Assembly: GCA_964422525.1 (NCBI GenBank) | Contig: CAYRAU010000001.1 | Location: 1 to 29,449, forward strand | Source of the DNA: Candidatus Woesearchaeota archaeon | Lineage (GTDB): Archaea; Nanobdellota; Nanobdellia; SCGC-AAA011-G17; CAYRAU01 | Reading direction: 5' to 3' | DNA length: 29,449 nt | Shown here: positions 2 through 4,354 of the stretch, piece after piece | Layout of the letters: each line of letters opens with the position of its first letter | Position numbering within the stretch: position 1 is the stretch's first letter | The notes under the pieces: model-generated | Database searches by the model: none | The model's input: only the letters and a program-made list of their open reading frames with translations | What the model was told of the DNA's origin: nothing | Translations under genes and position numbers: made by a program

Positions 2-88
2 ACTTATACTTTAGAAAATAATAATCTTAAAAAGGCAAAGCCTGTTTTTAAATTTGAGCTTGATATGGACAAGGCAAGCTCTTTTTAA
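2..88 (+). CDS. 3' end of an upstream CDS (partial; ...KPVFKFELDMDKASSF*), product unknown
   Basis: Frame +2 is open from the window edge to TAA at 86-88, 1 nt before the RPA ATG at 90, the tight spacing typical of this window. Confidence 0.35.
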   Translation, partial: TYTLENNNLKKAKPVFKFELDMDKASSF

Positions 89-89
89 A

Positions 90-1094
90 ATGTTTAATCT
101 AAGCTACGAAGAAATTGTTGATAAAATTGTAAATGAGAAAGGAATACCTAAGCAGGACATTCAGAGCAAAGTGGACTATAAGCTAAAGCAGCTTTCAGAC
201 CTTATAAGCAAGGAAGGAGCAGCCCACATAGTTGCTAATGAGCTTGGAGTTAAGCTTGTTAATCCATTGCAGAAAAGAAGGATGAAGATAAAGGACGTGA
301 TTGCCGGACTAAATTCTGCTGATATTGTTGGGAGGGTAATTTCTGTTTATCAGGTGAGAAGCTATAACAAGAACGGAAGAGAAGGCAAGGTTGCTAATTT
401 TATTCTTGGCGATGAGACAGGAACAATAAGGGTAGTTTTATGGGATACAAACCATATTTCCAACATAGAATCTGGAACCCTGAAAGAAGGCATTGTAATC
501 AAAATAAAGAATGCTTACGTAAAGGACAATAATGGCTATTCTGAACTGCATGTTTCTAACAAAGGAAAGATATTGTTTGATGTTGATGAGGAAATAGGCG
601 AAGTAAGCCTGGAATTAAAGCCTATATACAGGTTTAAAAAAATTAATCAGCTTTCCAAGGAAGAATCAGGAGTTGGCATACAGGGAACATTAGTCCAGAT
701 ATTTGAGCCTAAGTTTTACGATATATGCCCTGAGTGCAGCAAGAAAGTTGTTTTTGAATCCAGCAAATTTACATGTGCTGAGCACGGGGATATTGTGCCA
801 AAGGTTGCAATAGTTTTAAACTGCTATGTTGATGACGGAACTGAAAACATAAGAGTTACAGCTTTCAGGGACGCAGCATTAAGAATTTTAAAATTAAATG
901 ATGTTAATGACTTAAAGAGTAATCCTTCTTTGTTCATAGACCTAAAGGATGGATTGATTGGCAAAGAGGTTTTTGTCACAGGAAGAGTTGTAAAAAACAC
1001 TATGTTTGACAGACATGAGCTAATTGCTTCAAAGGTGGAAGATGCTGACCCATTGGAAATAGCAAATAAGCTGGTTGATGAAATTGCTAGGTAG
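90..1094 (+). CDS. rpa: Replication protein A (ssDNA-binding): N-terminal helical domain, two OB folds, C3H zinc finger
   Basis: OB-fold signatures (GKVANFILGDETGTIRVVLWD; CYVDDGTENIRVTAF), CPEC..CAEH zinc motif, N-terminal LISKEGAAHIVANELGV. ATG 90 preferred over the track's TTG at 54. Confidence 0.9.
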   Translation: MFNLSYEEIVDKIVNEKGIPKQDIQSKVDYKLKQLSDLISKEGAAHIVANELGVKLVNPLQKRRMKIKDVIAGLNSADIVGRVISVYQVRSYNKNGREGKVANFILGDETGTIRVVLWDTNHISNIESGTLKEGIVIKIKNAYVKDNNGYSELHVSNKGKILFDVDEEIGEVSLELKPIYRFKKINQLSKEESGVGIQGTLVQIFEPKFYDICPECSKKVVFESSKFTCAEHGDIVPKVAIVLNCYVDDGTENIRVTAFRDAALRILKLNDVNDLKSNPSLFIDLKDGLIGKEVFVTGRVVKNTMFDRHELIASKVEDADPLEIANKLVDEIAR

Positions 1095-1542
1095 AACCCA
1101 TCTTTTATTTTCAGTTATTCTTGGCTTGTTTTATATTGATTATTTTGGCTTTGAAGGCAGCAAAATACTTTTTTACCTTACCCTTGCTGTTGGAAGCCTG
1201 CTTCCTGATATCGATCATCCAAAAAGCATCCTAGGAAGAAAAATATGGCCTGTTTCAAGTGTAATAAATTTCTTGTTCGGCCACAGAAGCATAATGCACA
1301 GCTTATTTTTTATATTTGCCGTATGCTTATTAGTTTATTTCTTATGGCCTTTGTATTTTATTCCTGCTTTTATTGGATTATTAAGTCATCTATTTTTGGA
1401 TGTTTTAAGCAAGGAAGGCCTGAATTTATTATACCCTCTTAGGATATTTTACGTTAAAGGATTTATAAAAGTAGGCGGATTAGCCGAGAATTTGTTTTTT
1501 CTTTGCCTGATAATATTAACAATATTGAAAATATTTGCTTAG
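1078..1542 (+). CDS. Membrane-bound metal-dependent hydrolase (YdjM-like)
   Basis: GRTH, LLPDIDHP, HRSIMHS and SHLFLD motifs with several hydrophobic helices; overlaps the rpa 3' end by 17 nt. Confidence 0.85.
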   Translation: MKLLGRTHLLFSVILGLFYIDYFGFEGSKILFYLTLAVGSLLPDIDHPKSILGRKIWPVSSVINFLFGHRSIMHSLFFIFAVCLLVYFLWPLYFIPAFIGLLSHLFLDVLSKEGLNLLYPLRIFYVKGFIKVGGLAENLFFLCLIILTILKIFA

Positions 1543-3027: not shown

Positions 3028-3062
3028 CTTTACTAGACACACGGACAAGTCCTGCCCAATCA

Positions 3063-3072
3063 TTTATAAATA
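3063..3072 (+). promoter_or_regulatory. TATA box of the PC4-like/radA operon
   Basis: TTTATAAATA; implies a roughly 45-nt leader containing the SD-like AGGTGGTG (3128-3135) before ATG 3139. Confidence 0.55.
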
Positions 3073-3138
3073 ATATTGTCATTTTACTATTGTCTGAAAG
3101 GACATCTGAAAAAAATCCGAATAGGAAAGGTGGTGCAA

Positions 3139-3399
3139 ATGGTCAATAGACCTATAAAAAAATTTAGAGCGGCAAATATAGAAGGTGCTGTTTGGCTGAA
3201 TTCTAAGGAAAGCGAAAACGGAATAATTGGCTTTAAGACAGTTACTATAAGCAGGAGCTTCAAAAAGAAAGATGATGATACTTGGAGAAGCGAAGTGATA
3301 AATTTGAGGAAAAGCGATTTGATAAAATTGCAGGTTGTGTTAAATAAATTAAGCAACGAGCTATTCCTGTCAGAAGACAGCTATAATAAAGGAGATTAA
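3139..3399 (+). CDS. Small conserved protein, putative PC4-like ssDNA-binding fold
   Basis: ATG 3139 has an SD. Beta-rich pattern (PIKKFRAANIEGAVWLN..KTVTISRSFK..TW) followed by a helix (LRKSDLIKL..VL). Stop lies 1 nt before the radA start. Confidence 0.7.
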   Translation: MVNRPIKKFRAANIEGAVWLNSKESENGIIGFKTVTISRSFKKKDDDTWRSEVINLRKSDLIKLQVVLNKLSNELFLSEDSYNKGD

Positions 3400-3400
3400 A

Positions 3401-4354
3401 ATGAAAGACGAAAAAGAATTTTCATTCAAGGATTTGCCAGGGGTAGGAGCTGCTACAGCTGAAAAATTAGAATTAGCAGGCTATGATAATTTGATGAGCA
3501 TAGCAACATGCAGCCCGGCTGAAATGGTTGAAGTCGCTGGAGTTACAGATGTTACAGCAAAGAAAATAATTAATGCTGCGAGAAAAAAGTTGGATATGGG
3601 TTTTGAGTCTGGGGAAGACTTGTTAAAAAGAAGAGAGCAAGTTGTCAGAATAACAACGGGCTCCAAAGCATTTGATTCTTTGGTTGGCGGAGGATTTGAA
3701 ACTGGAAGCATCTCAGAATGTTTCGGGGAGTTTGGATCTGGCAAGAGTCAGCTAGCACATATATTGTCAGTAAGAACTCAAATGCCTGTTGATAAAGGCG
3801 GAGCTGGAGGAGCTGTAGTTTTTATTGATGGAGAAGGCACTTTCAGGCCAGAAAGAATTAAGCAGTTTGCAGAAGGCTTAGGCGTTGATCCTATGGAAAC
3901 CTTAAAAAATATAAAAGTTGCCAGAGCTTTTAATTCAGACCATCAGATGCTTGTTGCTGAGAAAGTGGAAGATTTGATTAAAGACGGATTTCCTGTAAAA
4001 TTAATTATAGTGGATTCTTTGACAGCGCACTTTAGGGCTGACTTCTCAGGAAGAGGGCAATTAGCAGACAGGCAACAGAAACTAAATAGGCATATGCATA
4101 CTTTGATGAAAATAGCAACCAACTATAATGTTGCGGTTTATGTGACAAATCAGGTAATGGCAAAGCCAGACACTTTCTTTGGAGATCCAACAGCGCCAAT
4201 TGGCGGAAATATAGTCGGGCATAACAGCCAGACTAGAGTTTACTTGAGAAAGGGAAAGAAAGGAAGCAGAGTTGCCAAGCTGATTGACAGCCCTTATCTT
4301 CCGGATGGGGAATGCGCATTCAAGGTTACTGAAAAAGGGCTAGAGGATGTTTAA
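3401..4354 (+). CDS. radA: DNA repair and recombination protein RadA
   Basis: N-terminal HhH (LPGVGAATAEKL), Walker A GEFGSGKS, Walker B IIVDS, LADRQQKLN, GGNIVGH, RVAKLIDSPYLP; SD GGAGA at 3391. Confidence 0.97.
   Translation: MKDEKEFSFKDLPGVGAATAEKLELAGYDNLMSIATCSPAEMVEVAGVTDVTAKKIINAARKKLDMGFESGEDLLKRREQVVRITTGSKAFDSLVGGGFETGSISECFGEFGSGKSQLAHILSVRTQMPVDKGGAGGAVVFIDGEGTFRPERIKQFAEGLGVDPMETLKNIKVARAFNSDHQMLVAEKVEDLIKDGFPVKLIIVDSLTAHFRADFSGRGQLADRQQKLNRHMHTLMKIATNYNVAVYVTNQVMAKPDTFFGDPTAPIGGNIVGHNSQTRVYLRKGKKGSRVAKLIDSPYLPDGECAFKVTEKGLEDV

Follow-up and report, generated by a model that had tools for sequence, protein, structure and literature searches.

A small protein with a predicted PC4-like fold, encoded in front of radA across an archaeal phylum, as a candidate RadA accessory factor

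To our knowledge, how RadA is loaded onto RPA-covered ssDNA in archaea is poorly understood, with RadB as the main candidate for the task. RadB, Rad52, RecO and the RadA paralogues aid the recombinase on ssDNA, and this is also the role that we tentatively propose here for a small archaeal protein. Proteins with a PC4-like domain have been catalogued as a fold class whose type II members are β4-α homodimers with swapped helices, and one of them, the PC4 homologue of phage T5, has been linked to recombination-dependent replication (PMC7549692). Members of this class are typically sequence-unspecific ssDNA binders (PMC3575825, PMC7549692). Within it, YdbC-type ssDNA binders coexist with the main SSB in Firmicutes, and PC4 and PUR proteins were stated in 2013 to be absent from archaea (PMC3575825). 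The single-repeat PUR protein of Borrelia burgdorferi, Pur-alpha/BpuR, binds its own mRNA and controls its translation (PMC6736767).

The locus that we compare with these systems lies in a stretch of 29,449 nucleotides of a Candidatus Woesearchaeota archaeon (hereafter the window), which belongs to a 484-kb MAG that is 75% complete. An 86-aa open reading frame precedes radA in it, among the following features:

54-1094, plus strand: gene for an RPA-like ssDNA-binding protein (Pfam: OB fold plus Rep_fac-A_C zinc ribbon), part of the conserved neighborhood
1075-1542, plus strand: gene for a YdjM-family membrane protein (PF04307, 2.4e-28), typically placed between RPA and the small gene
3036-3053, plus strand: promoter-proximal element GACAC-AC-GGACAAGTCC-T, 10 nt before the TATA box
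3063-3070, plus strand: TATA box TTTATAAA, ~70 nt 5' of the ATG, aligning with the TATA boxes of related loci
3107-3128, plus strand: purine-rich leader UGAAAAAAA followed by the mini-hairpin UCC-GAAUA-GGA, just 5' of the Shine-Dalgarno (SD) site
3129-3135, plus strand: SD-like GGTGGTG of the small ORF, read from the sequence, 3 nt 5' of the ATG
3139-3399, plus strand: small ORF of 86 aa, from an uncatalogued family, with a predicted β4-α (PUR/PC4-like) fold, a basic core and a short acidic tail
3401-4354, plus strand: radA, 317 aa, intein-free (PF08423, 3.6e-94, plus an N-terminal HhH domain)

The small ORF starts with the ATG at 3139-3141 and ends with the TAA at 3397-3399, and a single base (3400) separates this stop from the radA ATG at 3401. 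Coordinates and translation thus agree with the initial annotation of this DNA, which had described an 86-aa ORF with its own SD and a stop 1 nt before radA. The equivalent SD site in aligned leaders of related loci reads GGAGG or GAGGT, and the SD of radA itself, AAGGAGAT, is located within the last codons of the small ORF. Judged by its sequence, the 317-aa gene at 3401-4354 is unambiguously a RadA (Rad51/RadA). Because the 5' neighbor of the small ORF, a gene at 2102-2998, lies on the opposite strand, the small ORF opens a co-directional unit. The annotation had gone further and called it the first gene of the radA transcript, which is probable given the TATA box at 3063-3070 and a 1-nt gap with no room for a promoter or terminator.

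We examined ~130 loci and found the small gene almost always immediately upstream of radA on the same strand. Within the window's order, radA followed directly 3' of the small gene on the same strand in 29 of 30 loci, the exception being a contig end. The pair was also present in all 20 loci taken from a further 20 families in the phylum and in 79 of 84 additional loci (80 of these 84 from a metagenome scan), where the five failures comprised three contig ends, one 618-nt gap and one unexplained case. Among the 201 order genomes searched, the two genes were adjacent and co-directional in more than 110 for which both places were listed, and the few exceptions were contig ends or second copies (G088, G091, G174). 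Linkage to radA, on which the proposal of a recombination mediator had leaned, is thus conserved, and the small gene has the genomic association with the recombinase that a mediator would be expected to show.

The translational coupling claimed for the pair applies to the window, with its 1-nt gap, but not to the family as a rule. By estimate, a median of about 78 nt (n=126) separated the small gene from radA, and 30 of the 126 pairs (~24%), the window included, overlapped or stood no more than 10 nt apart. Adjacency to radA is therefore the rule and stop/start coupling a frequent variant.

Approximately 15 genomes of the order had neither gene, six had RadA only and two had the small gene only. 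Since genomes without the small gene were mostly also without a detectable radA, we count this pattern as co-occurrence support for a RadA accessory. In five genomes of the same class, from families without the small gene, radA was present with no small ORF in front of it; RadA thus does not depend on the small protein.

The neighborhood extends beyond the pair. An RPA homologue was located within 3.5 kb upstream in 34 of 50 loci with enough sequence (33 on the same strand), and the complete order RPA, YdjM, small gene, radA was found in 29 of 50 loci with at least 2.5 kb of upstream sequence. The window also contains RPA and YdjM genes, but two unrelated genes are inserted. One lineage that lacks the small gene (L141) shows the order RPA-YdjM-radA. 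Gene order suggests that the small gene joined an older RPA-YdjM-radA cluster.

Three further observations concern these neighbors. In the window, the RPA-like gene (54-1094) overlaps the start of the YdjM gene (1075-1542) by 20 nt. The RPA-YdjM pair is kept upstream of radA even in lineages without the small gene (L141). Finally, in several Woesearchaeales an intein (Intein_splicing plus LAGLIDADG_3) is inserted into RadA behind residue ~284 and lengthens the open frame to 800-880 aa, as in L151:87-2543 (G064) and ~15 further genomes.

How widespread is the small protein? A word-indexed search returned nine homologues with 49-80% identity, and a profile made from these nine matched 938 clusters at E≤1e-3 among 1.84 billion representatives searched; at the stricter E≤1e-10 it matched 92. 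In the window's order the profile matched 177 of 201 genomes (96 of 102 among the high-quality ones), and across the phylum 256 of 301 high-quality genomes, a tally that counts two unpublished genomes, G400 and G401, which bear on none of the other results. The family is near-universal in GTDB Nanoarchaeota, and with homologues in this many genomes of the order and the phylum the small ORF is no chance frame. No Pfam, NCBIfam or PHROG model matched the family when an alignment of 89 sequences was used, nothing was found for the small protein in the PDB by sequence or profile search, and matches in the ESM Atlas were unnamed clusters only. Representatives with N- or C-terminal extensions carried no Pfam domain. 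Literature searches returned no description of the small gene/radA pair.

Long or radA-fused forms of the small protein were not found, which is weak evidence. A 408-aa “open frame” in one genome (G434), considered as a fusion of the small protein with RadA, was rejected, as a TAG stop divides it into two genes. In a single metagenomic fragment (P0120, 111 aa), the C-terminal half of the small protein reads without a stop into the N-terminal HhH segment of RadA, possibly a natural fusion or else a sequencing or assembly error. At another locus (L040; G355:C1, ~255.2-255.9 kb), a single radA is preceded by two paralogues of the small gene in tandem, whose products could make a heterodimeric (type-I-like) PC4-like unit.

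We then consider the fold. An AF2 model based on the nine-sequence alignment (pLDDT 81.7) matched no fold clearly, with a lowest E of 0.07 in Foldseek and a highest Z of 5.3 in VIA, the latter for a YbaB-type protein. The model based on the 89-sequence alignment (pLDDT 90.4) has strands at residues 7-11, 14-25, 28-42 and 49-57 and a helix at 58-77. Alternating β-strands followed by a helix had been read from the letters alone, and the model bears this out with four strands and a 20-residue helix, the ~70-residue β-β-β-β-α unit that defines PC4-like type II.

This model was compared with 48,161 chains in a scan independent of Foldseek, with a second look at the matches. Borrelia burgdorferi Pur-alpha (3nm7_C, 3n8b_A) ranked first, at Z 7.4-7.6 with an rmsd of 2.2-2.3 Å over 70 of 75 residues, so that the model superposes as a whole domain on a solved PUR repeat. 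Other PUR repeats followed, with human PURA repeat III at Z 6.7 and Drosophila Pur-alpha at Z 6.3 in the scan, and 8chw_B at Z 6.7 and 5fgo at Z 6.3 in the second look. COMM domains reached Z 6.1-6.4 over residues 11-84 only. PC4 proteins ranked lower, namely human PC4 (Z 5.8, and 5.9-6.0 in the second look, at an rmsd of about 5 Å), the PC4 homologue BPSL1147 (Z 5.7) and MoSub1 (Z 5.1-5.5), together with MRP1/2 (Z 4.8), levivirus coat proteins (Z 4.5-5.0) and AcrIIA22 (Z 4.5). Whirly proteins also appeared in the second look. Scores of Z 6-7.6 are middling on the tool's own scale, and the PUR matches span the full domain. In Foldseek, all matches of the 89-sequence model had E values above 0.01, with a COMM domain on top. 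The list of structural matches is essentially the published catalogue of PC4-like domains (PMC7549692). The model thus supports a PC4-like (β4-α, “type II”) fold for the small protein, closest to a single PUR repeat.

Sequence comparisons gave a different picture. The PC4 model PF02229 matched none of 89 family members, and nothing among the proteins of the window's own genome even at E≤1; as a control, the same HMM detected the phage T5 gene with 32.8 bits. Comparison of the 89-sequence family with 24 T5-type PC4 proteins, which are a narrow subfamily, yielded an hhalign probability of 0.2% (E 0.33). PF04845 (PurA) and PF11680 (DUF3276) had no match in the window's genome at E≤10, and a single one of the 89 members reached DUF3276, at a non-significant E of 0.059. 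PF09901 (DUF2128/YdbC) was absent from the Pfam results of all 89. Because the fold matches but the PC4 and PUR HMMs and profile comparisons are silent, we file the small protein, on its sequence, as a new family of the PC4-like fold class and not as a member of the PC4 or PUR family. The original label “PC4-like” accordingly survives as a predicted fold class, with Pur-alpha rather than PC4 as the nearest structure, and falls as a statement of sequence membership in PC4.

Set against the described systems, the small protein resembles Borrelia Pur-alpha/BpuR in size, in basic character and in consisting of one β4-α unit. The two share no sequence or HMM similarity, the host here is an archaeon, and Borrelia has nothing comparable to the fixed place before radA. 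With the C-terminal domain of PC4/Sub1 and the T5 PC4 homologue (1pcf, 6ycs, 4bhm) it shares the β4-α topology and an aromatic and basic sheet, but the distance is greater (Z 5.1-6.0, rmsd about 5 Å, with neither a Pfam match nor, for the T5 type, an appreciable hhalign score). YdbC/DUF2128 and SP_0782 of Firmicutes are likewise small prokaryotic proteins of PC4-like fold; they differ in having no recombinase linkage, in being absent among the structural matches listed, and in the lack of any PF09901 match on the side of the small protein.

Conservation within the family is concentrated in a few residues. Among the 89 members, P5, G12, N21, W49 and D60 are nearly invariant (W49 in 84 of 89), and W19 (79 of 89), R39 and Y/F41 are strongly conserved. 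The exposed-aromatic pattern F, W, F, W noted earlier is present in the small ORF as F9, W19, F32 and W49. Net charge averages +3.4 over the core (residues 5-77), with 85 of 89 members positive there, and -2.6 over the tail that follows the helix, with 73 of 89 negative. An acidic tail, likewise noted from the window alone, is weak in that copy (SEDSYNKGD) but holds as a trait of the family. Many ssDNA binders combine a basic body with an acidic tail.

RadB was a natural point of comparison, as the small gene had been expected to anti-correlate with radB. It does not: TIGR02237 identified RadB-type genes, separate from radA, in 5 of 5 complete genomes with the small gene (three of the five matches exceed the curated cut-off), and the window's own genome has a RadB-like gene on contig C4 (131.9 bits). 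With RadB present beside the small gene, no missing mediator needs replacing, and since both occur in the same genomes the small protein would be an addition to RadB and not a substitute for it. The two also differ in that RadB is a RecA-fold ATPase, to which the fold of the small protein is unrelated, and in that the genomic association of RadB with the recombinase is less tight. RadB, the small gene and RadA can cluster, as in one complete genome in which the RadB gene lies ~1.7 kb from the small gene/radA pair (G204:C1:157223-160943).

Our preferred reading, to which we give a probability of roughly 0.4, is that the small PC4-like-fold protein binds ssDNA as a presynaptic accessory of RadA. 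This reading draws on the association of the gene with radA, and in many loci with RPA, on the predicted fold, on the charge pattern and the nearly invariant W19 and W49, and on the precedent of the T5 PC4 homologue; the possible fusion in P0120 would also favor it. In such a scheme, modeled on known PUR cases, two copies of the protein would pair by swapping helices, and the basic sheet of this homodimer, studded with aromatics, would bind single-stranded nucleic acid. The protein would be co-expressed with RadA from one promoter, and in the window its translation would be physically coupled to that of radA. It may then help RadA to gain or keep access to RPA-covered ssDNA, and its acidic tail may make protein contacts or regulate the protein itself, as such tails do in other ssDNA binders. 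What we infer for the protein is that it dimerizes, binds ssDNA, contacts RadA or RPA and possibly promotes filament formation. Conserved adjacency to radA could also reflect co-regulation only.

A less likely, though still serious, explanation is that the small protein is an autoregulator of the operon, which binds its own purine-rich 5' leader or promoter and so sets its own level and that of RadA. In its favor, the closest solved structure is Borrelia Pur-alpha/BpuR, and the purine-rich leader before the small gene recalls the binding of BpuR to its own mRNA. The leader is also conserved. The motif UGAAAUAAAA and a 3-bp GNRA-type mini-hairpin stand directly 5' of the SD of the small gene (window; L002-L138), and the string UGAAA[ACU]A[AG], short spacer, SD and AUG was found in 97 of 131 loci. 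Of 86 unique sequences, 56 can form a spacer hairpin of at least 3 bp and 54 of these hairpins have a G..A loop, compared to 6.5% and 0.9% of shuffled spacers, and the stems covary (UGC/GCA 38, UCC/GGA 9, UGG/CCA 5, UCG/CGA 2). The mini-hairpin is predicted in every fold of the window leader, and no Rfam family matches the element. Against autoregulation, the window leader taken as a whole is no more stably folded than its shuffled versions (z -0.95 to -1.16).

A fold of the window leader that masks the ribosome-binding site was considered but is not supported (z -0.95, 0.16 and -1.16 against shuffles), and the leader, a short one, contains no CCUC anti-SD. Longer leaders in other orders do have a CCUC able to pair with the SD.

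The promoter bears on autoregulation as well. A conserved promoter-proximal element stands on the operon, with a palindromic core GGACAAGTCC at 3043-3052, and boxes of the GACAA type occupy the equivalent promoter place in relatives. The combination of GACAC..GGACAAGTCCT and then TTTATAAA occurs in exactly two copies in the 484-kb genome. The second copy, at C30:4472-4505 (L148:973-1006), lies 5' of a gene for a 222-aa LAGLIDADG endonuclease (C30:4527-5195), and the sharing of the element between this gene and the small-gene/radA operon suggests a shared regulator. Taken as sequence, the promoter element and the leader suggest a small regulon plus control at the level of the leader. For the small protein to be that regulator, however, a palindromic promoter box fits a dsDNA-binding dimer (wHTH-type) better than a PUR fold, there would be no need to stay beside radA phylum-wide if further genes, the LAGLIDADG gene among them, belong to the regulon, and a phage homologue (below) occurs in a different context.

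The free-standing LAGLIDADG gene (C30:4527-5195) looks leaderless. Its product has marginal similarity to the endonuclease of the RadA intein (E 0.003 over the motif).

An extended form of the preferred accessory reading, which we hold to be unlikely, makes use of the same control region. Here the protein would be an archaeal recombination factor that spans the phylum and had escaped notice, a dimer of PUR/PC4 fold that captures ssDNA and passes it on to RadA. It would thereby take the place of Rad52 or RecO with an unrelated fold, under a damage-type regulon defined by the shared promoter box and with a leader that the protein itself may sense.

A shade more doubtful is that the small protein is a general single-strand nucleic-acid-binding or nucleoid protein, a second SSB-like factor, comparable to YdbC beside the SSB of Firmicutes, that would serve in replication, repair or the handling of RNA and whose position at radA would mean no more than shared expression. 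Such a role would suit the sequence-unspecific ssDNA binding typical of PC4-like proteins (PMC3575825, PMC7549692), a near-universal presence in the phylum as for a housekeeping gene, and the single family member that we found outside archaea. This 81-aa protein (L149:2283-2528), a true member of the family (hhalign 99.2%, E 6.9e-20), is encoded on the bacteriophage-like 41-kb IMG/VR contig IMGVR_UViG_3300010389_000040, which also carries a sigma-70-type factor. Its gene is flanked by a RadC-like JAB gene on one side and a gene of the GP88 family on the other, and the contig has no radA, so the family is confined neither to archaea nor to radA, and the basic activity of the protein may therefore be independent of RadA. 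Neither the archaeal nor the phage member had a homologue among GenBank phages and PLSDB plasmids. What speaks against a general binder is the rigid gene order across ~100 families, unusual for mere co-expression, together with the several overlapping or 1-nt junctions with radA.

A protein-protein adaptor, in which a COMM-like module scaffolds RadA or other factors, is very improbable: the COMM domain of COMMD proteins is a sheet-plus-helix unit that dimerizes by handshake, scores nearly as well as PUR repeats (Z 6.1-6.4) and is the top Foldseek match, but it has three strands, an N-terminal helical (HN) domain and no charged surface (PMC13392464), whereas the small protein was rejected as a COMM domain on account of its four modeled strands, its 86 aa with no further domain, its basic core and the lack of a Pfam COMM match.

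An accessory of RadA at the presynaptic step thus remains the reading that we favor, and recombinant RadA, RPA and the 86-aa protein, all three of them small, would suffice to test it directly. The small protein is a candidate new partner or regulator of archaeal recombination, and its family would add an abundant archaeal branch to the PC4/PUR fold class. It also brings a compact candidate control region, made up of a promoter box and a leader hairpin. What gives the association its weight is that a predicted ssDNA-binder fold is welded to radA across a phylum of small-genome archaea, organisms with few dispensable genes.
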